Assembly: GCA_021513695.1 (NCBI GenBank)
Contig: CP084166.1
Coordinates: forward strand, 896,001-960,000
Direction: 5' to 3'
DNA length: 64,000 nucleotides
Source of the DNA: Candidatus Heimdallarchaeum aukensis
GTDB taxonomy: Archaea > Asgardarchaeota > Heimdallarchaeia > Heimdallarchaeales > Heimdallarchaeaceae
Positions 8,310 through 64,000 of this stretch are shown here, one piece after another (position 1 is the stretch's first letter; every line of letters starts with the position of its first letter). Below the pieces are notes generated by a model that was given only the letters and a program-made list of their open reading frames with translations, was not told where the DNA came from and searched no databases. The translations under genes were made by a program, and so were the position numbers.

Positions 8310-8344
8310 CTTTTTTTTAAATATTCATTAAAATCTTTTCTTTT

Positions 8345-15333: not shown

Positions 15334-15463
15334 TTATATATTTCTAAAAGAGGAGATAAAATCATTGTTACGCTTACAGACAAGCTATTATGAATCGAAA
15401 TTCTCAAATGAAAGTAATATTATATGTTTTTGTCTATCTTCAATTAAATATTAAATAATTAAT

Positions 15464-16470
15464 AAAGCATGTCCAAAAATTAATTTTTATTAATGTGGGG
15501 GTTTATGTCGGAAGTATGAGTTTCTTTCAGATCATAGACCCCCACAAAGCAAGAGAATTCATAATCATTAATGAACCTTTCCTTAAGAAACTGGTGAAAG
15601 AGGAACCGAGAGAAAGTAAGAGAGGGAGAAAAAGAATAGCAGAAAGGTGGGTGATACTGGCTTTAGCGATCATTGCGAGAATAGAAGGAATTGCTTGGAG
15701 GAAGTTAGAGGAAAAGTTGTCTTTATGCGATTTTTTGATAGAAGAGGGGTGGATGAAGAAGATTCCTTCCAAATCTACTTTTCATGCAGTGTGGAGAGCG
15801 ACAGAAAGTAAGTTGCTGGAGCGGTGGATAATAGATTTAGGTAGGGAAAATAGTAAGGAAAAAAGGGTTGAAAGCTATGTCGGTGGATAGTTCAGGTTTT
15901 AAAATTCGTCAAGCTTCTGTTTGGCGTTTTCTCAAGTGGGCAAGAGGAGGACTAAAGAAAACCTCCAAACTTTTCTGGAAGATACACCTTATAGTTGGTT
16001 TACCCTCTCGAGCTATAGTCTCTCTTGCTCATTCTGCTAGTAACACTCACGATAGTAAAGTCTTCGGTTTACTATGGCAGAAACTTCCTTCTGCACTCTT
16101 GAGACCTTTCTTGAGATTCTATGGAGACTGCGCTTACTGGACAGAAAATATCGTGGGACTTCTTAGCCAACATTCCTTTTTTCCTGTTATTCCTCCAAAA
16201 AGTAATGCTCGTTATCCCTCTCCTCCTCCTCTTGGACCAATAGTTCAAGCTCATCGTCTCTACCCTGGTCTCTATCGTCATAATCACCACCCCGAGTATC
16301 GTAGTAGTATTGAACATGTCTTTGGTCTCCTCAAACTCTCTCTTCCCCCGATTCTTGATCGCTTACCCTCCACCATCCTCTCTACCTTGTACAGTTCTCT
16401 TCTCTGTTACAACTACCTTTTACTCCTTCGGACTGTATAGTTGGTGAAAAAGAATTTTTGGACATGCTTT
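15464..16470 (+). mobile_element. IS element copy 2 (IS4/IS5-like), same IRs as copy 1, transposase inactivated by a 1-bp insertion
   Basis: Inverted repeats AAAGCATGTCCAAAAATT at both ends. Sequence is identical to copy 1 except an extra A in the A-run at about 15847 (GGGAAAATAG vs GGGAAATAG). Confidence 0.8.
15495..16440 (+). pseudogene. Frameshifted transposase of IS copy 2
   Basis: The transposase reading frame is split into 131-aa and 190-aa ORFs whose translations are identical to the N- and C-terminal parts of the 8376-9320 protein. Confidence 0.75.
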
Positions 16471-25665: not shown

Positions 25666-27126
25666 ATGGAGGGCGTCGTTAAAACCTTGAAAGTGAGAAT
25701 AAAGAATGAGGTGTTGACGACTAGAAAAAAGCTAAGGTTAAGGAGAATAACGGGGAGAGACACAAGGATTATAGAAAAGTATGTGAGAATAATACACCAT
25801 AACAGAAGAAAGATATGTATACGAACCAAAAAAGGGAAAATAAGAGTACATAGAGGAAAATTAGATGAGTTGACGCTTACTACTTCAAAAGTTAAAGAAG
25901 AAGAGATGAGAACGACTGTTCCTCACGACCTTAAGAAAATGTTTCCTTACTGTTCTCACAATGAGTTTCAAGAGTGTAGAGATATAGCTGTGCAACTGTA
26001 CGAGCAAGGATATCGACCCAGTTCTAAACGTCCTCTCATAAAGAGAGTAAGAAGGCAACTAATTAATGGAAAAAGATTCATCCTTGTTCATCTACCAAAA
26101 GAAAAGAATAACACTCTTACTCGTTGGTGGGTGGGAATAAGAGACTCGTTAGACACGTGGAAAAGAAATACCCCCTACCATCAGAAGTTGTGGTTACCTT
26201 TAGAGATAAGCACTTTTCATCAGAAAGAGTTGAAAAAAGGACAAGTGAAAAGCCTAGAATTAAGATATAAGCATTCTACACGTGAGTGGTGGGTGTATTT
26301 TCAACTAAAAGTTCTCCCTCCTTCTTCTTTTCTAAGCGATAATTCCTCTTCTTCTTCTCTTCCTCCAGCTGTGCTGGGAATAGATCTGGGGATAAACATT
26401 CCAGGTGCAGGAGTGCTTCTAGCCCCTAAAAAGAAGTTAACTATTAAAGAGATAAAATTCTGGTATACCAAACAGTGGAATAAATTTAATCATAGATATA
26501 AACTTAAACTTTCCCGTCTTCAGAGGAAAGCGGCTTTAAATGACCAGTCGGGTAAAAAACACCAAATTTATCGTTTTCTTGGATATCTTCGAAGAAGATA
26601 TAGAAACGTTAAACGAGCCTATATTCACCAATTTGTAAGCGATATTGTGCGGACAATAGAGAGTTATGCGCAAGTGTATGATCTTTTTGTCGTCGTAGGT
26701 TACCCCAAAAATGTTAGAAAAGGAAAAGGAAAAGAAAAAGGGAAAAGTAAAAGTACTCGTTATTTTCGCAGAAAACTTCATCAGTGGAACTATGCTCATG
26801 TTCTTGGTCTTCTCCGTCGAGCATTGATATTAAGAGGTTTTGCTCCTCACCGCATTCTTATAATAGACGAAAGAGGAACATCTTCTCATTGTTCACGTTG
26901 TGGAAAAGAAGTTTCTCGTCCCGTCAGAGGGTTAGTCTCTTGTCCCTCTTGTAACTATACCTTCCACTCTGATTTAACAGGAGCTAGAAATATTGCTCTT
27001 AAGTTCCTTAGTCATCTTTTTCGTCCCCGTGTTACAACTATTACTGATTACTTTACTGGTCAAAAATTCAGTCTTACCCATTACACTGTTTGCCGAGGGC
27101 TCAGCCATTGGTTGCAGTCCCAGTAG
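25666..27126 (+). CDS. tnpB: TnpB (IS200/IS605-family OrfB, RuvC-like RNA-guided nuclease), solo without tnpA
   Basis: 486 aa. N-terminus MEGVVKTLKVRIKNEV.. matches the typical TnpB start. RuvC-I motif GIDLGINIPGAG. C-terminal zinc ribbon CSRCGKEVSRP...CPSCNYTFHSDLTGARNIA. Confidence 0.8.
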   Translation: MEGVVKTLKVRIKNEVLTTRKKLRLRRITGRDTRIIEKYVRIIHHNRRKICIRTKKGKIRVHRGKLDELTLTTSKVKEEEMRTTVPHDLKKMFPYCSHNEFQECRDIAVQLYEQGYRPSSKRPLIKRVRRQLINGKRFILVHLPKEKNNTLTRWWVGIRDSLDTWKRNTPYHQKLWLPLEISTFHQKELKKGQVKSLELRYKHSTREWWVYFQLKVLPPSSFLSDNSSSSSLPPAVLGIDLGINIPGAGVLLAPKKKLTIKEIKFWYTKQWNKFNHRYKLKLSRLQRKAALNDQSGKKHQIYRFLGYLRRRYRNVKRAYIHQFVSDIVRTIESYAQVYDLFVVVGYPKNVRKGKGKEKGKSKSTRYFRRKLHQWNYAHVLGLLRRALILRGFAPHRILIIDERGTSSHCSRCGKEVSRPVRGLVSCPSCNYTFHSDLTGARNIALKFLSHLFRPRVTTITDYFTGQKFSLTHYTVCRGLSHWLQSQ

Positions 27127-42341: not shown

Positions 42342-45300
42342 ATTTTCACACTACTTAGTTCAGCTTAAACCTCGTACTTGCTTGCAGAAGCACCTAGCAC
42401 GTAGTAATTTTCACACTACTTAGTTCAGCTTAAACCTTTCGATAATGATGGTGTTAGTGGTGAAGTGCAAAATTTTCACACTACTTAGTTCAGCTTAAAC
42501 AATCTATCAAGTGTCTCATTTTTTACGTTTCCTAGATTTTCACACTACTTAGTTCAGCTTAAACAATAACGTTTGAACATTGTTCTCGAATTCTTCATAA
42601 ATTTTCACACTACTTAGTTCAGCTTAAACAGTTGATGAAGGTGTGACAAAGTGTGACACTTCGATATTTTCACACTACTTAGTTCAGCTTAAACATTCTA
42701 CTTTTTTCTCAATCAATTTACAAGTTAGAGCGTCATTTTCACACTACTTAGTTCAGCTTAAACAGAACTAGGATCAGTCTCGGTCCATTCAGAAACTCGA
42801 TTTTCACACTACTTAGTTCAGCTTAAACTCCTAAAATAATAACTGATCCTAAGAATCCTGATAAGATTTTCACACTACTTAGTTCAGCTTAAACCCAGAG
42901 TGAGAACGGGGTTATAGGTCAATAATAAAGAAATTTTCACACTACTTAGTTCAGCTTAAACTTTGTTTTGATTTTTCTTTCTTTCAGGATAGCATCAATT
43001 TTCACACTACTTAGTTCAGCTTAAACAAATGGCTAAAAGAACCACAAGAACTTCAAGAAAATAATTTTCACACTACTTAGTTCAGCTTAAACTTTACATT
43101 TATATAACTTCCCCAGAAGATTATATATAATTTTCACACTACTTAGTTCAGCTTAAACCAGCAATGTTGGCACATCTCCCCACTCTACTTTCTCATTTTC
43201 ACACTACTTAGTTCAGCTTAAACATTACTCTTTTTTCTTTACAAAACATTTATATATTATATTTTCACACTACTTAGTTCAGCTTAAACGTTATATTAAG
43301 TGTTAAATAGTTCTCTTTTCCTTCTTATTTTCACACTACTTAGTTCAGCTTAAACGTAAAAAAATGAGTAATTCAGAAGAACATTTTCACACTACTTAGT
43401 TCAGCTTAAACTGAAAACCTTATAGGCTGGCGTGAATACGCAAACCTAATTTTCACACTACTTAGTTCAGCTTAAACACGTTTCCAAGTAAATCTGTTAC
43501 TATTTCAAATTTATTTTCACACTACTTAGTTCAGCTTAAACTGATTTACGTTACCCTCATGTTTGTTATGTTTATTTATTTTCACACTACTTAGTTCAGC
43601 TTAAACGAATTTACTTTACACAATGATCGTGCTGATACTGTTTTATTTTCACACTACTTAGTTCAGCTTAAACACATTGCTTGATATTGGAATTTTATAT
43701 CTTAATATATTTTCACACTACTTAGTTCAGCTTAAACCTGACTTTTTTGGAGAATTTGGTTTCGCTGATAGTAATTTTCACACTACTTAGTTCAGCTTAA
43801 ACTAGAAAATTGTATTCTTCAAACTATACGTATAGATATTCCATTTTCACACTACTTAGTTCAGCTTAAACCTTAAATTATCTTCAAACCAATCAGAATA
43901 ATAAAGTTCATATTTTCACACTACTTAGTTCAGCTTAAACATAAATATCGCTATTTCTCCTTTCTTAACTGTTCTTAATTTTCACACTACTTAGTTCAGC
44001 TTAAACCATAATCTATCATAAAAAAGTCTCCTATATCATAAGTATTTTCACACTACTTAGTTCAGCTTAAACACTATTTTTCCACCTTCTCTTTCTTCCC
44101 ATTCTCTCTTATTTTCACACTACTTAGTTCAGCTTAAACTTTGTACTTCACTGTGCTTAATATCTCTACTTATACTATTTTCACACTACTTAGTTCAGCT
44201 TAAACTTTATCACCCCTCATATATTTATTATACTTCCTAAAATTTTCACACTACTTAGTTCAGCTTAAACCGTACACCCATTCCTTAGGTGTCCAGTCTA
44301 ATACTTATTTTCACACTACTTAGTTCAGCTTAAACTCACCTATATATATGATGTTCTAACACATAAAAATCATTTTCACACTACTTAGTTCAGCTTAAAC
44401 CTGACTTTTTTGGAGAATTTGGTTTCGCTGATAGTAATTTTCACACTACTTAGTTCAGCTTAAACTAGAAAATTGTATTCTTCAAACTATACGTATAGAT
44501 ATTCCATTTTCACACTACTTAGTTCAGCTTAAACCTTAAATTATCTTCAAACCAATCAGAATAATAAAGTTCATATTTTCACACTACTTAGTTCAGCTTA
44601 AACATAAATATCGCTATTTCTCCTTTCTTAACTGTTCTTAATTTTCACACTACTTAGTTCAGCTTAAACCATAATCTATCATAAAAAAGTCTCCTATATC
44701 ATAAGTATTTTCACACTACTTAGTTCAGCTTAAACACTATTTTTCCACCTTCTCTTTCTTCCCATTCTCTCTTATTTTCACACTACTTAGTTCAGCTTAA
44801 ACTTTGTACTTCACTGTGCTTAATATCTCTACTTATACTATTTTCACACTACTTAGTTCAGCTTAAACTTTATCACCCCTCATATATTTATTATACTTCC
44901 TAAAATTTTCACACTACTTAGTTCAGCTTAAACCGTACACCCATTCCTTAGGTGTCCAGTCTAATACTTATTTTCACACTACTTAGTTCAGCTTAAACTC
45001 ACCTATATATATGATGTTCTAACACATAAAAATCATTTTCACACTACTTAGTTCAGCTTAAACCTCATAACAAATGGATAAAGACTATTGAAATCAAGAA
45101 TTTTCACACTACTTAGTTCAGCTTAAACCAATTATTATCGCAACAGCCATCTCAAGATCACCTTATTTTCACACTACTTAGTTCAGCTTAAACGTTTTTG
45201 AATAACAGTCTGTGAAGAGAGAGAAGCAAATTTTCACACTACTTAGTTCAGCTTAAACGTCTTATTTCGTTAAAATCTTCAACAATAGCTTGTTGATTTT

Positions 45301-48300
45301 CACACTACTTAGTTCAGCTTAAACACTTTAGACGTGAAAAATTGGTTAATGGTTTTAGGTGATTTTCACACTACTTAGTTCAGCTTAAACGTAAAGAGAA
45401 AAGAAGAAAGAAAAAGAACGATAAAAGAATTTTCACACTACTTAGTTCAGCTTAAACGAGATATTGCAACATTTTGCTACAAAAATATCTAAAAAATTTT
45501 CACACTACTTAGTTCAGCTTAAACTTTGAAGTATCTGTGATGTCTTTTGTGACTACTCCTGATTTTCACACTACTTAGTTCAGCTTAAACCTTACAGAGG
45601 GAGAATATGCGGGACAATATATTATTACATTTTCACACTACTTAGTTCAGCTTAAACATAGAAGAAGAGCTCATTACAACTTTCCTTTTCCGTGATTTTC
45701 ACACTACTTAGTTCAGCTTAAACAAGCGTCAGTAGCACCTACAAGCGGGACATTCACAAGATTTTCACACTACTTAGTTCAGCTTAAACTCTATTTTATA
45801 TACTTTCTCTAATTCTAAACTTCTACTATTTTCACACTACTTAGTTCAGCTTAAACAGTAGAAATGAAGGGGGGGTTAGGAGCTAGAAAAAATTTTCACA
45901 CTACTTAGTTCAGCTTAAACCAATTCTGTTAATTTGTTTATTTCTTCCCATCTTTCATTTTCACACTACTTAGTTCAGCTTAAACGATAAATGGTACAAT
46001 CGTTTGAACCCTTTTAGAAGAAATTTTCACACTACTTAGTTCAGCTTAAACAAGGTTATCGCCTTTACATTTAGGGTTCTCACAAGTAATTTTCACACTA
46101 CTTAGTTCAGCTTAAACTATTTATGTAAAAGTCCTCTTCATCTATTATTAAACTATTTTCACACTACTTAGTTCAGCTTAAACACTATAACTTTAAGCAC
46201 TTGTTTTACTATATCGAAAAATTTTCACACTACTTAGTTCAGCTTAAACAGTCCGTTCTCGTTTCTTATTTCTTCGTCATCGGTTCTAATTTTCACACTA
46301 CTTAGTTCAGCTTAAACATGATTTTGTATAGTTTCCTCTCTTTATAAATGAAAATTTTCACACTACTTAGTTCAGCTTAAACTCAGCGTTTTGTAGTTCT
46401 ATTTTTCGTAAGTCGTCATATTTTCACACTACTTAGTTCAGCTTAAACCATTTCTCCACCTCTTTTTCATTTCTACTTGTTCTAATTTTCACACTACTTA
46501 GTTCAGCTTAAACTTGCTCTCTAAATATATTGCATACATTCCTTTTCTGATTTTCACACTACTTAGTTCAGCTTAAACTGAACAAACACTCACAATCTTA
46601 TCTAATCTTTCAAACGTATTTTCACACTACTTAGTTCAGCTTAAACAAACTGAAGTCATGTCAAAGTTAGAAGCCCAACTATATTTTCACACTACTTAGT
46701 TCAGCTTAAACGAGCTTTTACTGAAGCAGAACTAAAAAGAAATACCCCAAATTTTCACACTACTTAGTTCAGCTTAAACCATTGAATTCCTCTTTCTTCC
46801 TCTGCACAATAGTGAATTTTCACACTACTTAGTTCAGCTTAAACACGGTGCTCTGAAATGATGGAGTTTGAACAAAAATATTTTCACACTACTTAGTTCA
46901 GCTTAAACGTACAATTATGTTAAATATAGAAGAATAAAAAGGAATTTTCACACTACTTAGTTCAGCTTAAACGATAAAAATGGTAGAAGAGCATAAGAAG
47001 AATGAGCTTAATTTTCACACTACTTAGTTCAGCTTAAACTCTATCCTCCTTTTTTTTGGTTTGCAGTTTATACAAGAATTTTCACACTACTTAGTTCAGC
47101 TTAAACTTCATAGAACTTGATGTTAGGGTTAGGAAAAACCTCATTTTCACACTACTTAGTTCAGCTTAAACTGTAGCTTTGAAAGTTTATCATAGTTATG
47201 TGAGAATTATTTTCACACTACTTAGTTCAGCTTAAACAGATGAAATTTCCGAATTAGTTACTTTATTTCCGTCTGATTTTCACACTACTTAGTTCAGCTT
47301 AAACATTGGAGCTCTTCCCTTGACAATACAAATATTACAAATTTTCACACTACTTAGTTCAGCTTAAACGAACGATTACAGTATAGAACAGACGAATATT
47401 ATTATATTTTCACACTACTTAGTTCAGCTTAAACATCAGCAACTCTTTGCTGGTTCTCAAGAGCTTTTTGATTTTCACACTACTTAGTTCAGCTTAAACG
47501 TGAAAAGTCTCTTGTGTAGGTATATCGTGCTGCGTATTTTCACACTACTTAGTTCAGCTTAAACAGGTTCTCACTTTGGACAAAAGAAGCAAGTTTAGAC
47601 GAATTTTCACACTACTTAGTTCAGCTTAAACTTTCTCCTGAAAGAAGATCGTATGGTAACGAATACGTATTTTCACACTACTTAGTTCAGCTTAAACTCT
47701 ACCACAATGAAGATCATGAGAAGAAACCCACACATTTTCACACTACTTAGTTCAGCTTAAACATTTTTTTCACCCATAATCATTTCCACCCCTCTTTGAT
47801 TTTCACACTACTTAGTTCAGCTTAAACTCAAGGTCAAAATGGGGAAAAAGGTCGAACTATGGTATTTTCACACTACTTAGTTCAGCTTAAACAACGCTTG
47901 TTTTGGGGTTTCACACCCCAAAATCTTATTTTCACACTACTTAGTTCAGCTTAAACTCTGCTTTATCTTCTTCTTTTTCACAATCTCTATGAATTTTCAC
48001 ACTACTTAGTTCAGCTTAAACTTTGCACCTATTATATTTTAAGAGTAAAGAATATAATTTTCACACTACTTAGTTCAGCTTAAACCAGAGAAAGACGCGG
48101 GTTCAATTTCGTATAAGTAAGTAATTTTCACACTACTTAGTTCAGCTTAAACTATCTTCTTTATCTCTTTTTCTACTAACTCATTCTTATTTTCACACTA
48201 CTTAGTTCAGCTTAAACTAGATAAAGGAAGTTTAGATAAAGCGATACAAGAATTGCTAAATTTTCACACTACTTAGTTCAGCTTAAACAAGCGAGTTCAG

Positions 48301-48420
48301 TATCTTCTTTTTCCTCATAGACCTTAATTTTCACACTACTTAGTTCAGCTTAAACATTTATTCCTGCTATACGCAATAGACTTGAAAACGTATTTTCACA
48401 CTACTTAGTTCAGCTTAAAC
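42342..48420 (-). CRISPR. CRISPR array 1: about 92 copies of the 29-bp repeat ATTTTCACACTACTTAGTTCAGCTTAAAC (+ strand) with 35-40 bp spacers; leader at the 48420 end, so it is transcribed on the - strand
   Basis: Perfect periodic repeat of about 66 bp seen directly; the transcribed orientation is GTTTAAGCTGAACTAAGTAGTGTGAAAAT, identical to array 2. Confidence 0.95.
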
Positions 48421-48535
48421 GAAGTTTATTTTCTTTTCTAGCTATATTTTTCTCTCGTTTTGTCACTCACCTTCCTGGTCGACCTCCAATAAGGTATTAA
48501 CTTTATAAATATTGACCAGATACATAAACGTTTAC
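48421..48535 (-). promoter_or_regulatory. Leader of CRISPR array 1 (about 115 bp conserved with the array 2 leader; contains a TTTATAAA TATA-like box and a GGTCGACC palindrome)
   Basis: GAAGTTTATTTTCTTTTCTAGCTATATTTTTCT...TTTGTCACTCACCTTCCTGGTCGACCTCCAATAA...CTTTATAAAT is about 90 percent identical to the reverse complement of 60858-60971. Confidence 0.6.
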
Positions 48536-52022: not shown

Positions 52023-52745
52023 TTGTTGATGAGGATTCTTATTTCTTTTAAGCCTAAATTTGATGTTTCAGAGGATGCCATAGTAAAACATGATATTCAA
52101 GGATTTATTTATAATCTAATCAAGTACAAAGATACTAAAGTTCTTTTAGATCATGATAAACATCATTTCAAATTTTTTTGTTTTAGCGATATTTTTCCTC
52201 AAGGTGATTTTAAAAAAGGAGAGACAAAAAATCTGTTAATTAGTTCTCCTACAAAAGAGCTAATAAATTTAATTGATGATAATCTTCCTCTTGAGAAATC
52301 CTATAGATTAGCTGGATTAACCATCGAAGTTATATCCAAAAAAACTTTTAACTTTCCCACAAAAAACAACTTTATTTCTGGAAGTCCTATAGTTTTATAC
52401 AAAGATAATACAAAGAATGAATATTTTAGCTTTAAGAAACACAAAAGTCTTAATTTCTTTCTCAATAGATTACAAGAAAATGCTGTGAAAAAGTATCAAA
52501 TTTACTATAACGATCCTGAATTTCAATTGTCTGGAAAGATTTTTGATACAATTGAATTTAGAAAGGAGGTTGCAGTTCACAACAGGAAACAAGGAAATGA
52601 ATTTATTCACATTGGCACTCTTTGGAAAAAATTAGAAAAAGAATACATAAAGAAAGAAGAAAGAAGGTTTTATCATTTTATCATGGAAAGTGGTCTTGGC
52701 GAAAAAAATAGTATGGGTTTTGGTTTTTTAAATCCTATTCAATAA
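52023..52745 (+). CDS. cas6: Cas6 (crRNA endoribonuclease), type I-B
   Basis: 240 aa; C-terminal glycine-rich loop GLGEKNSMGFGFL; first gene of the cas operon. Confidence 0.85.
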   Translation: MLMRILISFKPKFDVSEDAIVKHDIQGFIYNLIKYKDTKVLLDHDKHHFKFFCFSDIFPQGDFKKGETKNLLISSPTKELINLIDDNLPLEKSYRLAGLTIEVISKKTFNFPTKNNFISGSPIVLYKDNTKNEYFSFKKHKSLNFFLNRLQENAVKKYQIYYNDPEFQLSGKIFDTIEFRKEVAVHNRKQGNEFIHIGTLWKKLEKEYIKKEERRFYHFIMESGLGEKNSMGFGFLNPIQ

Positions 52746-52850
52746 ATTGTATTTTTTTGTTTAAATTTTACAATTAATTTTTGAAAAAACAACCTTTAAA
52801 ATATTTTTTTCTTTCTGTTTTACCAATAAAACTTAATTATTGGTGTTCCA

Positions 52851-54863
52851 TTGATACAAGCAGTTAAACAATTAGGAAAAAAAATACGAGAGATTTATCC
52901 TGAAAAATATGCAGATTTTGTCGATGTCTTTATTGCAGATGTAAAAACAGATTTATTTTTGATAGAATTAGAGAAAAAAGAAAACGATTTTCAATATAAT
53001 AAAATTGTTTGGATGGAACCAAAACCTGAGATAATTCCTAAATTACTTTATAAAGACTTTGGGAGAAATATCAAAATTAGACCTGCGCCTGTAGCTAAAG
53101 TAGGTTATTTCCAGACCAAATCAAAAGATGGTAAAATTTCAGAAAAAGAGCTCGAGAATCACAAGAAGAAAATAAAAAGCGAACTAGACGCTTCCATAAT
53201 TAAATGGTTTTCTCAAGAAATTGATAGAAGAAAAGAAGGTAGTGAAAAAAGAATTTTCTTGGAAAATATAAAAAAAGGAATACTCAATTCATTAGATAAT
53301 ATAATTACAGATATTAAAGAACAGATGGATTTTTCAGGTCAAAATAAGAAAAAAAATGAAAAGTGTATAATAACACTACAATTTTTGGAAGGTGGTAAAG
53401 AATATTACCTTCGTGACTTTGATATTTTTTCTAAAGCTTTTTTAGATAAAAACTTGGAACGTTACGCAAATAAATGGGGAATAACTTCTAAAGGAGAAGA
53501 TGCTGTTTGTTCATTATGTCATGAGAAAAAAGAAGAAGTCTTTGGTTGTGCCTCAGACATTTTTAGCTGGTACACTCTTGATAAAAGAGGATTTGCACCA
53601 TTCTTTGATCAGACTTTAGGATGGAAACTATTTCCTGTCTGTAAAGAATGTATTATTGATCTAGAGATAGGCAAAAAATTTGTTTTAAACAATCTACGTC
53701 TTAAGTTTAATGATTTTACTAACTTTTTCTTAATTCCAAAGCTTCTAAATCCTAAAATTATCGATAAGGGTATTTTGAGAAGATTTGAGCTTTTCAAGAG
53801 TATTTCAGTTGAAAATAATGAACTATTGGAAAAATATAGGAAAAAAGAAGAGATACTTAAGAGAGCTACAAAAAGCACAATTGAAATGATCGGAGAACAA
53901 GAAAAAGATAACAATTTTACGCAGAATATGATTTTCCTGAATTTAATTTTCTTTGATGATGATGGAAAATCTATAAAGATTCTACGTAGTATTGAAGATG
54001 TTCTTCCTTCCAGGTTTGTTCAGATAACTGATGAGCTATATAAAATAAATAAGGATGAAACTTTGGACAGCTATAAAATTTATTTGCAATTAGTTTTAAA
54101 CATCTTATATCTGGAAAAAGAAAGTAAACGCGGTTCTACAATTGATAAAAAGTATTTATCTACAATCGATTCTCTTCTTAAAGATGTACCTTTAGATTAT
54201 GATGTTCTTATAAAGGATATCGCTTCAAGTTGTCAAGAGATAGTAAAGGAAAGTTATCTTTCTGATAACAATCTAAAAAAAATAGCTAAAAAAATTACAA
54301 ATATTGACAAAGGTAATAATGACGTAGAATTTGGCAACTCTTATGAGTTAATAATTAATGCTTATTTAAAATATTTAGTTTTATTAAAAAGATTAAATCT
54401 AATCCAAAAATGGAGGGTATCAAAAATGATTGATAAAACAGGACTTGAAGAAGAAATATCAGATAATAAGAGTCGACTAAGCATCTTAAATTCAATATTT
54501 AATGCTTATTCTGACTTTTTTGATCAACCCATTATTCGTGCTGTCTTTGTATTAGGCATTTTGACTAAGCTATTGATGAATATTCAGTATCGCAATCTCA
54601 ATGCTACGCCTTTTTTCAACAGGTTAAATGGGTTAAAATTGAATAAAAGAATAATAATCAAACTTGTTTCCGAAGTAAAAGGAAAACTAAGTGAATACTC
54701 TATAGCTTATGTTGATTTAGAAGAAGAGATGGCTAAATACTTCTTAGAAGCTGGTCACAATTGGCTGGTTTCTGATGACGAACTTAGTTTCTTCTTCGCT
54801 TTGGGAATGAATAACGCGAGTAAATTTAAATCAGAAACAAAAGAAGGTGAAGAAAATGAGTGA
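52851..54863 (+). CDS. cas8b: Cas8b (Csh1/Cst1 large subunit), type I-B
   Basis: 670-aa protein between cas6 and cas7, with Cys-containing region CSLCHEKKEEVFGC...CKEC; its position and size define the I-B large subunit. Confidence 0.75.
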   Translation: MIQAVKQLGKKIREIYPEKYADFVDVFIADVKTDLFLIELEKKENDFQYNKIVWMEPKPEIIPKLLYKDFGRNIKIRPAPVAKVGYFQTKSKDGKISEKELENHKKKIKSELDASIIKWFSQEIDRRKEGSEKRIFLENIKKGILNSLDNIITDIKEQMDFSGQNKKKNEKCIITLQFLEGGKEYYLRDFDIFSKAFLDKNLERYANKWGITSKGEDAVCSLCHEKKEEVFGCASDIFSWYTLDKRGFAPFFDQTLGWKLFPVCKECIIDLEIGKKFVLNNLRLKFNDFTNFFLIPKLLNPKIIDKGILRRFELFKSISVENNELLEKYRKKEEILKRATKSTIEMIGEQEKDNNFTQNMIFLNLIFFDDDGKSIKILRSIEDVLPSRFVQITDELYKINKDETLDSYKIYLQLVLNILYLEKESKRGSTIDKKYLSTIDSLLKDVPLDYDVLIKDIASSCQEIVKESYLSDNNLKKIAKKITNIDKGNNDVEFGNSYELIINAYLKYLVLLKRLNLIQKWRVSKMIDKTGLEEEISDNKSRLSILNSIFNAYSDFFDQPIIRAVFVLGILTKLLMNIQYRNLNATPFFNRLNGLKLNKRIIIKLVSEVKGKLSEYSIAYVDLEEEMAKYFLEAGHNWLVSDDELSFFFALGMNNASKFKSETKEGEENE

Positions 54864-55785
54864 AATAATAAAAAATAGGTCTGAAATAGTTTTTTTGTAT
54901 GATGTTAGAGACGGTAATCCAAATGGTGACCCTGCTGATGGGAACAAGCCTAGGATTGATGAAACCAGTGGTATCAACATAGTAACTGATGTTCGACTAA
55001 AGAGAACAATAAGAGACTATATAAACAAGGTTAAAGGCCATGAAATTTTTGTTAAAAAGATAGAAGACTTAGAAGGGATAATCCAAACTTCTAAACAACG
55101 AGCACAAGATTTTCAGAATGATCCAGATAAGATTCTTTCTGAATGCGTGGATGTCAGGATGTTTGGGGGAACTATACCAATAAAAATTTCTGATAAGAAA
55201 GATGGTAGCATTACTTTTACTGGTCCCGTTCAATTCTCTATGGGGAGATCTCTTCACAGAGTCGAGTTAAAACATGTTAAAGGAACAGGAGCTTTTGCTT
55301 CTTCAGAAGGAAAGAAACAACAGACTTTTCGAGAAGAGTGGATACTACCTTATTCACTAATAAGCTTTTATGGTGTAATAAATGAGAATGGTGCAGAAGA
55401 TACACAGTTAACCGAAGAGGATGTTAAGCTTCTTGTAGAAAGTATCTGGAATGGGACTAATGATTTGTTAACAAGAAGTAAGATGGTTCATAGATCTAGA
55501 GTTCTTTTACAAATTATTTACCAAGAGAAAAACTTCCATGTCGGAGAGCTTGACAAAAAGATTAAGATGAAGGCTAAAGTTGAAGATGAAAAAATTAGAG
55601 GTACGGATGACTACACTCTTGAATTTGATAATTTTGTAGAAGCGATCAAAAATAACAAAGAAAAAGTAAAAATTATTCGTTACAAAGTAGATGACAGTAT
55701 TAATCTTGAATTTAATGGTGACAAAAAGACTATAGAAGAGATTCTAAAACTTACAGAATGTGAATTGGAAGAGCTGAAATTTTAA
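54847..55785 (+). CDS. cas7: Cas7 (Csh2/DevR-type backbone subunit), type I-B
   Basis: N-terminal FLYDVRDGNPNGDPADGN signature of Cas7 family proteins. Confidence 0.9.
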   Translation: MKKMSEIIKNRSEIVFLYDVRDGNPNGDPADGNKPRIDETSGINIVTDVRLKRTIRDYINKVKGHEIFVKKIEDLEGIIQTSKQRAQDFQNDPDKILSECVDVRMFGGTIPIKISDKKDGSITFTGPVQFSMGRSLHRVELKHVKGTGAFASSEGKKQQTFREEWILPYSLISFYGVINENGAEDTQLTEEDVKLLVESIWNGTNDLLTRSKMVHRSRVLLQIIYQEKNFHVGELDKKIKMKAKVEDEKIRGTDDYTLEFDNFVEAIKNNKEKVKIIRYKVDDSINLEFNGDKKTIEEILKLTECELEELKF

Positions 55786-55791
55786 TAATAG

Positions 55792-56553
55792 GTGAGACTA
55801 ATGCTAAAACAGGAAGCTGAAGTAAGAGAAGTTTTAGTTTTCGATATTTGGGGTGATTTTGCTCATTTTAAGAAAAACTATGCTACAACTTCAGCTCTTA
55901 CATACAATTTTCCTCCTCGAAATACTATTGCAGGAATAATTGGAGCAATTTTAGGTTTAAAGAGGGCAGATTTTCCTGAAAAATTGTCTCCTGAAAAGAG
56001 TTACATTGGTGTTTCAATACTCTCTCCAATAATGAAAAAAACTATTACAATGAATCTTATTCACACTAAACCTTCTGAATCACTTATATTCAAAAATAAT
56101 TTTGGTTATTTCAAAAAGCACACACAGATTCCTTTTCAATTTTTATCTAATATCTCATTTAGGGTGTATTTTTCAACTGACGATGAGGAAATGTTTTCAC
56201 AACTATATACATATCTTAAAAACCATAAGTCTCATTATACAGTTTCGTTAGGTTTGAGCAATCTACTTTGTAACTTTAAGTTAATAGGAAAAAAAACAAT
56301 AAGAAAAAAAGAAGTAGCTAACAAAGAAGTAGAGGTTTTAACAGTAATTCCGATGAACAAAGTCAAAGAAGTAAATGTGTTTAAAAATCCTAAAATGAAT
56401 ATCGAGAATTTACCCAGATTTATCGATAGTTCAAGAACAGTTCATGAATACCAGGAAGTTCTATCAAGCATGGATCCAGAAAAACCTCTTTTTGTAGTCC
56501 CTAGAGATACCTTATGGGAGATTGAAAATGACAAATTCATCAGTTTCCTCTGA
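55792..56553 (+). CDS. cas5: Cas5 (type I-B)
   Basis: 253 aa; N-terminal VLVFDIWGDFAHFKK...PPRNTIAGIIGAILG typical of Cas5. Confidence 0.85.
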   Translation: MRLMLKQEAEVREVLVFDIWGDFAHFKKNYATTSALTYNFPPRNTIAGIIGAILGLKRADFPEKLSPEKSYIGVSILSPIMKKTITMNLIHTKPSESLIFKNNFGYFKKHTQIPFQFLSNISFRVYFSTDDEEMFSQLYTYLKNHKSHYTVSLGLSNLLCNFKLIGKKTIRKKEVANKEVEVLTVIPMNKVKEVNVFKNPKMNIENLPRFIDSSRTVHEYQEVLSSMDPEKPLFVVPRDTLWEIENDKFISFL

Positions 56554-58990
56554 AAATCAGATAAACATTTTTTCTCACCCTAATAAAAATATTTTAGAAC
56601 ATTTAAGTGAGACAGAAAGAGAAATTCTAAATATCCTTGAAAAACTACAGCCCAATTTTTCAATCAAAAAAAACATTATTATCGAAATCGCTAGAATTTT
56701 AGCTTTAACACATGATATTGGAAAATGCACAATCTTTTTTCAAGAATATCTTCATTCAAACGAAGAAAATAACTTCAAAAAATTGGGAGAATATCAAAGT
56801 TCAAAACTTCACCACCATGGACTAATCTCTGCAGTTTTTACCTATTATACACTAAAGAAACTTTTAAATTCAAATAATGAGCAGTTCTATGACCTGAATA
56901 GTGGATATAAAGACCTATTACCTCATATAGGCTTTTTAACAACAAAAAAACATCATGGTAATTTAGGAAATTTTTATGATGAGATTATTATAAACAGAAC
57001 AAGTGAAGAAAAGATTAGACAGCAACTAGAAAATTTCCATCCCCAATTCGAAAATGTTGTCGAATTCATAAGAAATAAAATTAATATAACAATTTCATTT
57101 AATGAATTTTCAGAATCCTTTGGAGATTTAATTGATGAATTAGCTTTCAGTGATGAACTATTATTGAACTATTATGAAAATAGTAGAGATTGTGAACTTT
57201 ATCTATTTACTTTATTTTTACATTCAATCTTAACAGATGCAGATAAAACTTCTGCTATTGGTGTCTCTAAGCCTATTCTTCCATTTATTTCTTCTAACAA
57301 AATTATCAAAAACAGGAAAAAAATAATCCAGAAAAAAGGAAAAAAGACATATTTAGATAACTTAAGAGAGAATATTTACAAAGAAGTAATTGCAAAGATA
57401 GAAAAAACACCTTTAGATAACAAAATATTTACATTAACAGCTCCTACAGGTTCAGGAAAAACTCTCACAGTTTTTGAAGCAGCATTTAGATTGAAAGATA
57501 AAATTTTAAGGAGAACTAATATAGAAATGAAAATTATTTATTGCCTTCCATTTCTCAGCATCATTGATCAAAATGCTCACATTATTAACCAACTGCTAGA
57601 TCCTGACTCAGTTAAGTTTCTTCCTTCAACTCAACTACTAATTCATCATTACTTGGCAGAAGTTCAATACAGCTCTTATGAAGAAGATTATACCTTTGAT
57701 GAAAGTAGATTCCTAATTGAGGATTGGCATTCTTCAGTTATTATTACAACCTTTATTCAGCTTTTTCATAGTATTTTTACCAATAGAAATAGCAAGATAA
57801 GGAAACATCACAATATACAAAATTCTATCATAATACTTGATGAAGTTCAAAACATTCCTCATAAGTATTGGTTATTGATCAGGGAAGTTTTTCAAAGATT
57901 ATCAGAGATCGAGAATGTTTATATCATTTTTACAACAGCCACACAGCCTAAAATTTTTAGTTCAGAAGAGAAAGTTGTTGAATTACTTGAAAATAAGGAA
58001 AAATACTTTGAACAGTTAAGTAGAATTACTTTAGAACCAAAAATTGATAACAATATCACACTCAACGAGTTTATTTTAGAAATTAATGAGAAACTGCAAA
58101 AGAACAGTGACAAGGATATTCTAATTGTTGCGAATACAATCCGAGAAGCTCAAGAGATTTTTGACAGTATTAATTTTAAAAAAGATCATGATAAGTTATT
58201 TTTCCTTTCAAGTCAAATAATCCCTAGAAAGAGGAAAGAAAGAATTGAAGAAATAAAGAGAAAATTAGAAAAAGAAAAAGATAAAAGAGAGAGTAATGAA
58301 AAACGAATTATTTTAGTAACTACCCAATTAATTGAAGCAGGAGTAGATATCGATTTTGATATTGTAATAAGAGATTTAGGACCAATAGATTCTATAAATC
58401 AAGTAGCAGGAAGATGTAACAGAAACGGAGAAGAAGAAAAGGGAAAAACAATTGTTTATTCAGTCATTGACCAAAAAACAAAAAGATTATTTGCTTCATA
58501 CATTTATGACGGATTTATTTTAAGTAAAACGAAGGATGTTCTAAAAAACAAAAGAGTGATAGAAGAACAAGAATTCCTCAAAATCATTGACGATTATTAT
58601 TTAAGCATCGAAAAGACAGGGGACACAATAACCTCCACTAATATACTAGACTCTATCTTTAATTTAGAGTTTGATGAAATAGGTAAATTTAGCCTGATAG
58701 AAGAAAGAGCTGATCAAGTTCCTGTTTTTATTGAGATAGATAAAAAGGCAAAGGAAATTTGGGCAGAATATTTGGAAATATGGAATATTAAAGATTGGAA
58801 GAAAAGAAATGAGAAATTTATAAAAATCAAAAATGATCTCTATAGTAACTTAATTAACGTAGACAAGAAAAAAATCAAAACAATTGAGCAAATAAAGGGT
58901 TATTATTATATCGATTTTCAAAATGCTAGGAACTACTACGACAATGAAAAAGGTTTCATTGGGAAAGAAAAAGATGTTATTTTATTATAA
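56522..58990 (+). CDS. cas3: Cas3 (HD nuclease + DEAD/DEAH-box helicase fusion)
   Basis: HD-domain motifs LTHDIGK and HHHG; helicase motif I LTAPTGSGKT and motif II IILDEVQ; 822 aa. Confidence 0.9.
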   Translation: MKMTNSSVSSENQINIFSHPNKNILEHLSETEREILNILEKLQPNFSIKKNIIIEIARILALTHDIGKCTIFFQEYLHSNEENNFKKLGEYQSSKLHHHGLISAVFTYYTLKKLLNSNNEQFYDLNSGYKDLLPHIGFLTTKKHHGNLGNFYDEIIINRTSEEKIRQQLENFHPQFENVVEFIRNKINITISFNEFSESFGDLIDELAFSDELLLNYYENSRDCELYLFTLFLHSILTDADKTSAIGVSKPILPFISSNKIIKNRKKIIQKKGKKTYLDNLRENIYKEVIAKIEKTPLDNKIFTLTAPTGSGKTLTVFEAAFRLKDKILRRTNIEMKIIYCLPFLSIIDQNAHIINQLLDPDSVKFLPSTQLLIHHYLAEVQYSSYEEDYTFDESRFLIEDWHSSVIITTFIQLFHSIFTNRNSKIRKHHNIQNSIIILDEVQNIPHKYWLLIREVFQRLSEIENVYIIFTTATQPKIFSSEEKVVELLENKEKYFEQLSRITLEPKIDNNITLNEFILEINEKLQKNSDKDILIVANTIREAQEIFDSINFKKDHDKLFFLSSQIIPRKRKERIEEIKRKLEKEKDKRESNEKRIILVTTQLIEAGVDIDFDIVIRDLGPIDSINQVAGRCNRNGEEEKGKTIVYSVIDQKTKRLFASYIYDGFILSKTKDVLKNKRVIEEQEFLKIIDDYYLSIEKTGDTITSTNILDSIFNLEFDEIGKFSLIEERADQVPVFIEIDKKAKEIWAEYLEIWNIKDWKKRNEKFIKIKNDLYSNLINVDKKKIKTIEQIKGYYYIDFQNARNYYDNEKGFIGKEKDVILL

Positions 58991-59002
58991 CGAAATGATG
59001 GA

Positions 59003-59031
59003 GTTCAAGCTAAACTAAGTAGTATGAAAAT
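59003..59031 (+). repeat. Orphan degenerate CRISPR repeat (26/29 identity to the array repeat) between cas3 and cas4
   Basis: GTTCAAGCTAAACTAAGTAGTATGAAAAT compared with GTTTAAGCTGAACTAAGTAGTGTGAAAAT; same orientation as array 2. Confidence 0.6.
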
Positions 59032-59073
59032 TAGAGGTAGAAGTAATGGTATTAAATTCTTGGTGAAATTGTA

Positions 59074-59604
59074 ATGGTGGAGTTAAATCATATTAGCATT
59101 AAGAATACTGATTTTGCAGTAACTGGAGTAATGGTTCAATATTTATTTTCATGTAAAAGAGAATTGTGGTTTTTTACCAAAAAAATTGATTTCAACAAAG
59201 AGGATCAGAACATTCAAATTGGCAAAATAATACATGAAACAAGCTATAAACGAAATAAAAAAGAGTTTGACTTAGGTTTTGTAAAATTTGACTTAATTGA
59301 AACAAAAAACAGGATAATAATTTCTGAAATAAAAAAATCTTCAAAACTTTTGGAACCTGCAAAAATGCAACTTTTGTATTATGTTTACATTTTAAGTAAA
59401 ATAACTGAAAAAGAAGTAGAAGGAGAAATTAGAATTCCAAAAGAGAGAAAAAAAGTAAAGATTCAATTGCAAAACGAAGAAGAAAAATTAATTCAAAAAG
59501 CTTTGAGAGAGATTAAAGAAATTTCCTTACTGGAAAGACCTCCCAAAGCAGAAAAAAAATTTTATTGTAAGAATTGCGCTTATTACATTTTTTGCTGGGT
59601 TTGA
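59074..59604 (+). CDS. cas4: Cas4 (RecB-like nuclease with C-terminal Fe-S cysteine cluster)
   Basis: 176 aa; N-terminal Cys (FSCKREL) plus C-terminal CKNCAYYIFC; position between cas3 and cas1. Confidence 0.85.
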   Translation: MVELNHISIKNTDFAVTGVMVQYLFSCKRELWFFTKKIDFNKEDQNIQIGKIIHETSYKRNKKEFDLGFVKFDLIETKNRIIISEIKKSSKLLEPAKMQLLYYVYILSKITEKEVEGEIRIPKERKKVKIQLQNEEEKLIQKALREIKEISLLERPPKAEKKFYCKNCAYYIFCWV

Positions 59605-60591
59605 GTGAAAAAAATGAAAGATTCTATTTACATTACAAAGGAAGGAGTAATTTACAGAAAAGATAATACTATTGTTTTTCAAAATCAAGAACAAAAGCAT
59701 ACTTTACCTATCGAAGCAGTGAAAGATATATATTGTATTGGCAAAGTAACTATAAGATCTGGAGCAGCTTATCAACTAATGGAAAAAAGGATTCCTGTAC
59801 ATTTTTTCGGAAAATATGGACACTATAGAGGAACATTACAACCAAAACAAGATCTAATCTCTGGAGAAGTAATAGTAAAACAAGTTCAACATTATACTGA
59901 TTACATAAAAAGAATAAAAATTGCAAAAGAGATGTTTAAAGGAATAAAACACAACATTCTCTGGGTTCTAAAATATTACAAATCAAAAAGAGATATAGAA
60001 GATGTAGTTGAAAAAATTGAACATGTTAATATTCAAGAAGAAATATTAAAAATAAATACATTAAGAAGTTTAGAAGGTCAAATATGGGAACTTTTCTATC
60101 AAGCTGCTGATACAATTTGTCCTTCATGGGGTTTTAGAAAAAGGACTAGAAGGCCTCCTTTAGATGAAGGAAATGCACTAATATCTTATGGAAACTCAGT
60201 TCTATATGGAAAAACAATTTCTGAAATATTCAAAACTTATCTTCATCCTGCAATTTCGTTTATACACGAACCAAGTGAAAGAAGGTACTCTTTAGCCTTA
60301 GATCTAGCTGATATTTTCAAACCAGTAATAGTTTTTAGAACAGTCTTCAGGCTTATAAATCAGAAAATAATTTCAAAGAAAGATTTTGAAAAAGAAGTAG
60401 GAGTCCAAATTTCAGAAAAAGGAAAAAAAGTATTTATCACAGAATTAGAAAAAACATTCACAACTACAGTAAGACATCCAAATCTGAAAAGAAATACCTC
60501 ATACCAGTTTTTGATAAGACTTGAAGGACTAAAAATAATGAAACATGTTCTAGGAGATAAAAAATATGAAAGCTTTAAAGCATGGTGGTAG
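59605..60591 (+). CDS. cas1: Cas1 integrase
   Basis: 328 aa; start abuts the cas4 stop; length and position between cas4 and cas2 consistent with Cas1. Confidence 0.85.
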   Translation: MKKMKDSIYITKEGVIYRKDNTIVFQNQEQKHTLPIEAVKDIYCIGKVTIRSGAAYQLMEKRIPVHFFGKYGHYRGTLQPKQDLISGEVIVKQVQHYTDYIKRIKIAKEMFKGIKHNILWVLKYYKSKRDIEDVVEKIEHVNIQEEILKINTLRSLEGQIWELFYQAADTICPSWGFRKRTRRPPLDEGNALISYGNSVLYGKTISEIFKTYLHPAISFIHEPSERRYSLALDLADIFKPVIVFRTVFRLINQKIISKKDFEKEVGVQISEKGKKVFITELEKTFTTTVRHPNLKRNTSYQFLIRLEGLKIMKHVLGDKKYESFKAWW

Positions 60592-60857
60592 AGATATACG
60601 TGATAATCGTTTATGACGTGGGAGAAGAAAGAGTAAATAGAATACATAAATTCTTGAAAGCATATTTAACATGGACACAAAATTCAGTATTTGAAGGAAA
60701 AATAACAAAAGCAACATTAGCTCAAATAAAAACAGGAATAAAAAGCATAATAAAAAAAGAAGTCGATTCAATAAAAATATTCAAAATAAAAGGAGAACAA
60801 TGGATGAATATTGAAATAATGGGAGTAGAAAAAAATAAGTTTCAGAATATAATTTAG
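60582..60857 (+). CDS. cas2: Cas2
   Basis: 91 aa; N-terminal MVVEIYVIIVYDVGEERVNRIHKFL typical of Cas2; overlaps the cas1 stop. Confidence 0.8.
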   Translation: MVVEIYVIIVYDVGEERVNRIHKFLKAYLTWTQNSVFEGKITKATLAQIKTGIKSIIKKEVDSIKIFKIKGEQWMNIEIMGVEKNKFQNII

Positions 60858-60971
60858 GTAAATCGTAAGAATCAGGTCGACATTTATAAAGATGATACAT
60901 TATTGGAGGTCGACCAGGAAGGTGAGTGACAAAAGGAAAGAAAAATATAACTAGAAAAGAAAATAAACTTC
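60858..60971 (+). promoter_or_regulatory. Leader of CRISPR array 2 with ATTTATAAAG TATA-like box and two GGTCGAC elements
   Basis: Sequence directly after cas2 is the reverse complement of the array 1 leader (about 90 percent identity over about 115 bp). Confidence 0.6.
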
Positions 60972-63900
60972 GTTTAAGCTGAACTAAGTAGTGTGAAAAT
61001 TTCTTTTGTTCTTTGGAGGAGGACAACCTTCAACGAGTTTAAGCTGAACTAAGTAGTGTGAAAATCAGTCTGGGTATATTTTATGCCCCTCAATATTTTG
61101 AGTTTAAGCTGAACTAAGTAGTGTGAAAATTGCTGGCTGGACTGGGCATAATTTCCAGAAATCTCTGTTTAAGCTGAACTAAGTAGTGTGAAAATAGTAA
61201 AATAGCTTTTATTTATTCCGTAGTAATATATGGTTTAAGCTGAACTAAGTAGTGTGAAAATCGCTATTGTAGTCGAGTTAGAAGATGGAGAGATTGAGTT
61301 TAAGCTGAACTAAGTAGTGTGAAAATAAATATATTGTGATGAATTGGATAAAAGAACTAAAAGTTTAAGCTGAACTAAGTAGTGTGAAAATAAACCAGAA
61401 GGAATGACTTTCATTCCTGCTACAGGTTTAAGCTGAACTAAGTAGTGTGAAAATTAATCAGAATAAAATGCTCATAATCATTGGTATAATAGTTTAAGCT
61501 GAACTAAGTAGTGTGAAAATGCAAAGCAATGAAAGGAGTGTTTTGTCTGGTGAGGTCGTTTAAGCTGAACTAAGTAGTGTGAAAATCAATCAGATTTGAG
61601 GGACAAAATAGTCCCGTTGGGACGTTTAAGCTGAACTAAGTAGTGTGAAAATACTGAAGAACAAGAAAAGAATATAAAAAGAACCAAGGTTTAAGCTGAA
61701 CTAAGTAGTGTGAAAATTAATATATCTATCGACTTGAACAAATTAGTTGAAGAGGGTTTAAGCTGAACTAAGTAGTGTGAAAATGGTAAATCCCCCAACA
61801 ATCCTGAAAGTGTTAAATTTGTTTAAGCTGAACTAAGTAGTGTGAAAATATTGTTCTTTTTTCAAATCATCTATTTTTTTTGCTCGTTTAAGCTGAACTA
61901 AGTAGTGTGAAAATTACAATTGACAGTAGTCACACACAAACCATTTAGGTGTTTAAGCTGAACTAAGTAGTGTGAAAATAAAATTCTTCGTGTGTCATAT
62001 AAAAGGCATCATCAGTTTAAGCTGAACTAAGTAGTGTGAAAATAGATCAGAGAGACTTGGGTAGAGTTAGTGAGATCTATGTTTAAGCTGAACTAAGTAG
62101 TGTGAAAATTACATATTTTTGAATAATTGAGACATGCATATGACGTTTAAGCTGAACTAAGTAGTGTGAAAATACAGCTCTCAACTGATAAGAGCGTTCT
62201 TTTTCATTGTTTAAGCTGAACTAAGTAGTGTGAAAATTTGTCAAAGTGTTTGTATAAGTGTCAATATAATCTGTTTAAGCTGAACTAAGTAGTGTGAAAA
62301 TATGTCTTTAGAGACTTGTTGAAGAGCAGGATTGTCAGGTTTAAGCTGAACTAAGTAGTGTGAAAATCAAGCATTTCTGCGATAACGACACCAGAACCAT
62401 TAAGTTTAAGCTGAACTAAGTAGTGTGAAAATTAAATGTGGTCGTGTATCGTTATATGGTGCTCTGAAATGTTTAAGCTGAACTAAGTAGTGTGAAAATA
62501 TATCTCCAGAGTGCCAAATTTCAACATTTGACACGTTTAAGCTGAACTAAGTAGTGTGAAAATCCAATTAATTAAGCCGCTGTTTCAAAAGGTGGTTCAG
62601 TTTAAGCTGAACTAAGTAGTGTGAAAATTTCGATGGATCCATAAAGGTAAATTAGGATCCCAAAAGTTTAAGCTGAACTAAGTAGTGTGAAAATAAAAAG
62701 CCAAGAGATGGATTGATGAACAAAAAAACCGTTTAAGCTGAACTAAGTAGTGTGAAAATCAGTCTGGATAGAGTTTGTGCCCATTAATATTCTGAATTGT
62801 TTAAGCTGAACTAAGTAGTGTGAAAATAGAGTAGGATTGTCAGATTGATCCATAAGGTATAGAAGTTTAAGCTGAACTAAGTAGTGTGAAAATGGTGACG
62901 CCACAAGCGAGGCATTCCCAAGCTCAATAGTTTAAGCTGAACTAAGTAGTGTGAAAATGGATTAAAAAATATGTCTCCTCTCGCTCGTTACGGGTTTAAG
63001 CTGAACTAAGTAGTGTGAAAATAATATCTTTAGATACCTGTTGAAGAGCGGAGTTGGTTTAAGCTGAACTAAGTAGTGTGAAAATCCAAAATTCTCGACT
63101 GCCTCTAAAGCAAATGAGAAAGTTTAAGCTGAACTAAGTAGTGTGAAAATTTTTTTTTCTGTCTGTTATTTCTTCTACTTCTTCTGTTTAAGCTGAACTA
63201 AGTAGTGTGAAAATTTATGATATGCGAACGTTTGCATGTTTGCGAATACAAGTTTAAGCTGAACTAAGTAGTGTGAAAATAGAAAACGTTTGGCTCGAAT
63301 GGATTGGTTTCTATGTCGTTTAAGCTGAACTAAGTAGTGTGAAAATTTGCTAAACCCGCCGCATAATCTTTTTTCTTTTATTTTGTTTAAGCTGAACTAA
63401 GTAGTGTGAAAATTAACCTGCAGAAATATCTTGTAAAATCTTGAATTCAACCTTGTTTAAGCTGAACTAAGTAGTGTGAAAATTAGTTTTGATTTGTAAA
63501 AGACGGATATCCACTTGTTGTGCTGTTTAAGCTGAACTAAGTAGTGTGAAAATATCAACACGTGGGTTTCTATCCAAATCTAATCCTCTGTTGTTTAAGC
63601 TGAACTAAGTAGTGTGAAAATAGCGATATAAAGAAGTTATCCTTTTCAGTATAATAAGGTTTAAGCTGAACTAAGTAGTGTGAAAATAAATTTCTAAAAA
63701 TATTGAAAGGTCAAAATCAAGATTGTTTAAGCTGAACTAAGTAGTGTGAAAATCTAACATGTGTAAGATTCATTGGGCCAATCCAAATTGTTTAAGCTGA
63801 ACTAAGTAGTGTGAAAATCTAAACACAATTTGCATGATGCCATGCTTGTTTTTTGTTTAAGCTGAACTAAGTAGTGTGAAAATGTTGGTTGTGTATAGTG

Positions 63901-64000
63901 TAAATAGATTTTTCTGATTGGGTTTAAGCTGAACTAAGTAGTGTGAAAATTTCTACTTCAAAGAATGAGCACCAATAGTTAAACCAGTTTAAGCTGAACT
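60972..64000 (+). CRISPR. CRISPR array 2: at least 46 copies of GTTTAAGCTGAACTAAGTAGTGTGAAAAT with 35-40 bp spacers, leader-proximal end at 60972, continues beyond the window end
   Basis: Perfect periodic repeat seen directly; transcribed on the + strand away from cas2. Confidence 0.95.

Follow-up and report, generated by a model that had tools for sequence, protein, structure and literature searches.

Why would a CRISPR array carry spacers that closely resemble one another without being identical? The CRISPR-Cas loci of the Asgard archaeon Candidatus Heimdallarchaeum aukensis have already been described (Wu et al. 2022; PMC8813620). We analyzed one 64-kb stretch of its genome, hereafter the window, in which a preliminary description had noticed two pairs of such spacers in the array that we call array 2 and had explained them by repeated sampling of the same target from diverged invaders. 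Repeated sampling of variant targets is ordinary, textbook behavior of CRISPR arrays and is already known. Can these particular pairs be attributed to it, or do they reflect chance, duplication, or gene families?

Organization of the CRISPR-Cas Locus

The window holds two CRISPR arrays with a type I-B cas operon between them (Table 1). Array 2 consists of 46 complete, identical 29-nt repeats, GTTTAAGCTGAACTAAGTAGTGTGAAAAT, followed by a 47th that is cut by the end of the window, and its spacers are 34–41 nt long. The same repeat makes up array 1, and not a single substitution was found in the 139 repeats of the two arrays (46 in array 2 and 93 in array 1). The leader of array 2 contains a TTTATAAA box and is homologous to that of array 1 (local alignment score of 86.5 over about 115 nt). 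The homologous leaders at both arrays fix their polarity, so that the spacers of array 2 are numbered from the newest, B01, towards the oldest. As the window cuts array 2, older relatives of the paired spacers may lie beyond it.

All of the genes of the operon scored above the respective NCBIfam cut-offs, and, as predicted from these matches, the type I-B gene set is complete, in the order cas6-cas8b-cas7-cas5-cas3-cas4-cas1-cas2. The gene-level features of the subtype were all found: Cas8b, Cas7, Cas5b, and Cas6 are encoded together, Cas3 combines the HD nuclease and the helicase domains in a single 822-aa ORF, and Cas4, Cas1b, and Cas2 are encoded beside the leader and the array. Over 10.3 kb, the window sequence is matched at 100% identity by a Logan contig from SRR15988954. 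One spacer of array 1 is only 27 nt long, every other spacer being 34–42 nt in length.

Table 1. Coordinates of the arrays, leaders, cas genes, spacers, and other features; positions are those of the window unless a related contig is named.
Feature	Position (nt)	Strand	Details
CRISPR array 1	42342–48420	−	93 identical copies of the array 2 repeat, 92 spacers
27-nt spacer of array 1	43356–43382		
Tandem duplication in array 1	43738–44400 = 44401–45063		10 spacer-repeat units (region 43709–45065)
Spacer A24 (array 1)	46845–46879		
Leader of array 1	about 48421–48535	−	Homology to array 2 leader
Type I-B cas operon	52023–60857	+	
cas6	52023–52745	+	TIGR01877, 108 bits (cut-off 59)
cas8b	52851–54863	+	Cas8b/Csh1 TIGR02591, 122 bits (cut-off 104)
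cas7	54847–55785	+	Cas7/Csh2 TIGR02590, 281 bits (cut-off 171)
cas5	55792–56553	+	Cas5b TIGR02592, 120 bits (cut-off 97)
cas3	56522–58990	+	cas3_core 141 bits (cut-off 102), cas3_HD 73 bits (cut-off 43)
Solitary repeat	59003–59031		
cas4	59074–59604	+	74 bits (cut-off 65)
cas1	59605–60591	+	Cas1b TIGR03641, 409 bits (cut-off 304)
cas2	60582–60857	+	53 bits (cut-off 24.5)
Leader of array 2	60858–60971	+	Between the cas2 stop and the first repeat
CRISPR array 2	60972–64000	+	Runs past the window end; B01 adjoins the leader
Spacer B02	61066–61101	+	36 nt; newer member of pair 1; reverse-complement frame QNIEGHKIYPD
Spacer B21	62302–62338	+	37 nt; newest of three at locus 2; reverse-complement frame DNPALQQVSKD
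Spacer B23	62433–62470		
Spacer B28	62760–62798	+	39 nt; older member of pair 1; reverse-complement frame IQNINGHKLYPD
Spacer B29	62828–62864	+	37 nt; locus 2; same frame as B21, LYLMDQSDNPT
Spacer B32	63023–63056	+	34 nt; oldest, most divergent at locus 2; reverse-complement frame NSALQQVSKDI
Repeated stretches, polysaccharide-biosynthesis region	8344–9024 vs 15463–16144; 7828–8171 vs 18518–18860		
TnpB-like ORF	25666–27126		486 aa
Repeat and leader region in contig L004	3233–3932		
Repeat and leader region in contig L008	5406–6061		
Solitary repeat in contig L008	3463–3491		

Related but Non-Identical Spacers in Array 2

We compared 137 spacers of both arrays with one another by all-vs-all local alignment on both strands, leaving out the last complete spacer of the window (63951–63986). 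Two pairs, B02/B28 and B21/B32, stood out with scores of 22 and 21, compared with 14.5 for the next non-duplicate pair. No other pair among the 127 unique spacers is related without being identical, and these two are the very pairs that the preliminary description, which had asked for this alignment, had picked out by eye. The positions given there lie within 1–2 nt of the parsed coordinates, and all four quoted spacers could be located, the quoted B32 containing an extra G with which the next repeat begins. Ten pairs of identical spacers that also appear in the comparison are due to a 10-unit duplication in array 1, which is discussed below.

Within pair 1, B02 and B28 are identical at 29 of 36 positions in an ungapped alignment that starts at a common first base, and 3 nt more are present at the 3′ end of B28. 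The 5′ end was thus correctly described as common to the two spacers, with mismatches scattered over 7 positions. Within pair 2, 27 of 33 positions are identical, again without gaps, with B32 starting 1 nt upstream and B21 reaching 4 nt further in the 3′ direction. A fifth spacer, B29, is connected to pair 2 by its first 16 nt, 15 of which match the last 16 nt of B21; the score of this overlap alone is at the noise level, and the same reading frame continues across it. The members of the pairs are dispersed, B02 and B28 being 26 units apart and B21 and B32 11 units apart. None of the spacers in array 1 is related to either pair.

Could the similarity be a product of chance? In the shuffled controls, the maxima of 60 sets averaged 15.8. 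The binomial probability of each pair, multiplied by about 720,000 comparisons, amounts to 5e-5 for pair 1 and 1e-4 for pair 2, and a six-frame peptide comparison recovered the same two pairs only, their scores being 69 and 63 and the shuffled sets reaching no more than 55. Several weaker spacer pairs, with scores of 12–15, do not rise above the shuffled controls and owe their similarity to A/T runs, yet the probability that chance or the low-complexity composition of an AT-rich array explains the two pairs is close to nil, as their scores exceed the maximum (19) of all 65 shuffled sets, their corrected binomial values are small, and the five spacers have a dinucleotide entropy at the median or higher (51st–96th percentile of all spacers), which also disposes of the caveat about low complexity that the preliminary description had attached to its own claim.

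The additional pairs B26/B29, B23/A24, B30/A41, A40/A32, and others were dropped, since their scores are at the shuffle level. Spacers B23 and A24 have an exact 13-mer, GGTGCTCTGAAAT, in common in opposite orientation. They could represent overlapping protospacers on opposite strands, a match that is statistically at chance level; the joined B23/A24 sequence is absent from IMG/VR.

Codon Phase of the Differences

The members of each pair have diverged by roughly 18–19%. The mismatches fall at positions 9, 12, 14, 18, 24, 26, and 33 in pair 1 and at positions 3, 12, 15, 27, 29, and 30 in pair 2, with a single codon phase holding five of the seven and five of the six, respectively (p = 0.14 and 0.05), a modest result when taken by itself. 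Together, 10 of the 13 differences occupy third codon positions of one frame on the reverse complement, which is free of stop codons in all five spacers, as are some frames other than the chosen one. In this frame, the amino acid is preserved in seven of the changed codons and replaced in three. Furthermore, transitions outnumber transversions by 9 to 4.

The translations are consistent with two short stretches of protein. At locus 1, the two spacers encode the peptides QNIEGHKIYPD and QNINGHKLYPD. At locus 2, B21 and B29 overlap in frame and together yield a continuous 19-residue peptide, LYLMDQSDNP[A/T]LQQVSKDI. The 12 nt common to B32, B21, and B29 are present in three versions (AGAGCGGAGTTG, AGAGCAGGATTG, and AGAGTAGGATTG); the version in B32, the oldest spacer, diverges most, and those in B29 and B21 differ by one base. 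The codon phasing, the excess of transitions, the three versions of one site, and the unmutated repeats indicate that the sequences diverged outside the array, in protein-coding DNA of which the array then sampled different versions. A strand bias of the spacers relative to the likely coding strands was not significant (p = 0.13).

Proposed Origin of the Spacer Pairs

These observations point to a history in which, for both pairs, the same gene site was probably captured repeatedly from diverged versions of a putative mobile element. The mechanism that we propose is as follows. The Cas4-Cas1-Cas2 proteins would have captured one PAM-flanked protospacer on separate occasions, and the source on each occasion would have been another, diverged version of a protein-coding gene on the element. 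Site 1 would have been sampled twice (B28 and then B02), and site 2 with its immediate neighbor three times, in the order B32, B29, B21. The 18–19% divergence would have accumulated in the invader population under purifying selection and not inside the array.

The PAM of a type I system lies next to the spacer end that faces the leader. If the PAM sets this end, independent captures would have a common first base or be shifted by a single position, and the far end would be cut with the usual latitude of 34–42 nt. The members of each pair share the leader-proximal boundary and vary by 3–4 nt at the 3′ end, which fits independent captures at one PAM site, and the 1-nt offset of pair 2 may represent an imprecise, slipped capture. 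The flanks that can be read from the overlapping spacers are TGA ahead of the B29 site and A ahead of the B21 site.

What stands of the preliminary account is therefore the resampling of the same site from diverged sequences, which is supported by the codon phase, the transitions, the spacer boundaries, the identical repeats, and the three versions of locus 2. Viruses or plasmids as the source, the PAM, and an arms race between them and the host are features that we infer. Taken together, the pairs indicate past activity of array 2 of this Asgard archaeon and repeated encounters with a mobile element that was diversifying. They also provide an internal estimate of the divergence of the invader, in the range given above and mostly synonymous.

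Did the older spacers promote the acquisition of the newer ones? Primed adaptation from partially matching spacers is known for an archaeal type I-B system, in which the PAM is authenticated at positions −1 to −3 (PMC4066796). An older, mismatched spacer may likewise have primed the later captures here through Cascade-Cas3. The footprint to be expected, an older spacer that partially matches the source of a newer one, is seen by proxy in both pairs: B28 differs from the source of B02 at 7 of 36 positions and B32 from that of B21 at 6 of 33, the older member being the one farther from the leader in each case. At locus 2, the sites of B29 and B21 are on the same strand as that of B32 and either coincide with it or are no more than 21 nt away, a grouping of just three spacers at one locus. 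The system resembles that of Haloarcula hispanica (PMC4066796) in the gene set of the subtype, in the position of an older, partially matching spacer with newer ones leader-ward of it, and in the PAM-defined protospacer ends that are expected. On the other hand, priming, which is defined by clustering and a strand bias of the new spacers, was demonstrated experimentally in Haloarcula hispanica, whereas here it would have to be read from sequence alone, with two to three spacers per locus.

Re-acquisition at the same PAM site without priming explains the data equally well. It is thus only a tentative suggestion that the series B32, B29, B21 and B28, B02 might be a record of escape and reacquisition by primed adaptation. 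If true, it would be the first in situ indication of priming in an Asgard archaeon, and the peptide tags LYLMDQSDNP[A/T]LQQVSKDI and QNI[E/N]GHK[I/L]YPD could be used to find an evolving Heimdallarchaeial virus or plasmid. We also considered the mismatches in the seed (positions 4, 5, and 9 of the older spacer compared with the newer version) as escape mutations; they are uninformative, and this reading was dropped because, at 19% divergence, about 85% of comparisons should show at least one mismatch in the nine seed positions.

Alternative Explanations: Paralogous Sources, Host DNA, and Duplication Within the Array

Could pair members have come from paralogous genes or repeated domains of a single mobile element, or from one infection event, such that no diverged lineages are needed? 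The window itself contains paralogous stretches at 77–79% identity and duplicated stretches at 100% identity, and random host fragments reach alignment scores of up to 29; hence, pairs with about 80% identity can come from a single genome. However, locus 2 is represented by three versions, of which those of B29 and B21 differ at 1 of 16 positions, and these look like variants in a population. The 26 and 11 acquisitions that intervene between the pair members likewise favor population variants. We therefore regard a paralogous source as unlikely.

A derivation of the spacers from paralogous genes of the host chromosome has to be considered as well, the more so as our inspection covered 64 kb of a closed genome of 3.08 Mb. 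No match of the spacers to the window is longer than 19 nt, however, and a comparison of all of the spacers with both Heimdallarchaeum genomes at 95% identity had yielded eight protospacers only, all of them in four mobile elements (PMC8813620). A host origin thus appears very improbable.

Finally, a spacer may have been duplicated within the array and the copies mutated in place. Exact duplication of spacer blocks by recombination within arrays has been reported (bioRxiv 10.1101/2022.05.19.492656), and array 1 provides just such a case, with an exact tandem duplication of a 10-unit block that has a period of 663 nt. This duplication could have arisen by recombination between repeats or could be an artefact of long-read assembly. 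The pairs in array 2 are unlike it. Duplication would leave identical copies, usually in a contiguous block, whereas the pairs are dispersed single units of unequal length, differ at their 3′ ends, and are 81–82% identical. In addition, not one repeat is mutated in either array, and in a non-coding array, mutation in place would not yield codon-phased, transition-rich differences. Duplication followed by mutation is accordingly scarcely credible for the two pairs, for which repeated capture from a diverged element is the reading that we retain.

Searches for the Target

From which element might the spacers have been taken? The preliminary description had proposed a search of viral and metagenomic databases; no protospacer was found in any of the collections searched. 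When the spacers of array 2 and array 1 were searched by blastn against isolate phages, and those of array 2 against plasmids, the hits were at chance level only (E of 0.2 or more). Codon-degenerate patterns built for locus 1, locus 2, and the B29 part had no match among the IMG/VR contigs, nor had the cores of three other spacers, and the pair 2 pattern had none among the GTDB species genomes, where it missed even the array itself, so that this genome is not part of that collection. A peptide query with the spacer translations returned no candidate. Exact seeds of the five spacers gave no real match in the 56 mobile-element contigs and the tables of Wu et al., whose FASTA file of these contigs is wrapped at 70 columns.

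In the JGI metagenomes, the pair 2 pattern gave a single hit. We rejected it as a protospacer and attribute the match to chance or to very remote relatedness, because it has only the LQQVSKDI forced by the pattern and 23 of 33 nt (counted by hand) in common with the spacers, and nothing else in it is similar.

These results agree with the genome paper, in which no Heimdallarchaeum spacer matched IMG/VR v3, RefSeq viruses, or GTDB at 95% identity and few protospacers were detected, in local metagenomes (PMC8813620). The available part of the main text of that paper does not mention related non-identical spacers, and two spacers as different as the pair members would not be connected at its threshold of 95% identity. 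With degenerate probes such as those used here, at the nucleotide or the peptide level, the element could be found below this threshold. The practical value of the pairs is modest, and the concepts of CRISPR biology are unchanged by them.

Comparison with Other Arrays

In arrays from acid-mine-drainage and hot-spring communities, variants of a single virus or element are targeted by multiple spacers. Repeated targeting of one element has reportedly been found in Legionella arrays as well (PMC5071653). These arrays are like array 2 in that one element is resampled and in that the order of the spacers is a time record of evolving invaders. They are unlike it in that their targets were identified, whereas the target here belongs to unsampled dark matter.

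Related Strains and Additional Features of the Window

Is the array still changing? Two contigs from related Heimdallarchaeaceae carry the identical repeat and a homologous leader: L004 (JGI 3300033150), with 99% Cas1 identity, and L008 (GCA_054387415.1), with about 86% DNA identity in the cas region. None of their 20 leader-proximal spacers is common to them and the window or to each other, and none comes from the sites of the two pairs. The combination of the same leader and repeat with different leader-proximal spacers points to ongoing acquisition and active turnover; this turnover between strains is an indirect sign that the system may be active. The comparison gives no support to the idea that the conserved hot spots of the preliminary description are shared across strains. 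A Cas1 search of the GTDB genomes found no related arrays.

A solitary CRISPR repeat lies in the 83-nt gap between cas3 and cas4 and has three mismatches to the array repeat. It is retained in L008, with one mismatch, and there the sequence downstream of it, up to the start of cas4, differs. Possible explanations are that Cas6 cleaves the cas mRNA at this repeat or that the repeat is a scar of recombination. A self-regulating mini-CRISPR at this place is unsupported, as the 36 nt that follow the repeat have no seed match elsewhere in the window.

No RNA families of the Rfam type were found in the window. In its polysaccharide-biosynthesis region, two 300-nt stretches that are about 7.1 kb apart are repeated at 100% identity, and aminotransferase-like fragments are repeated at 77–79% identity. 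The window also contains an ORF with a Cas12f1-like TNB domain, which resembles the transposon-associated nuclease TnpB and is unrelated to the CRISPR locus.
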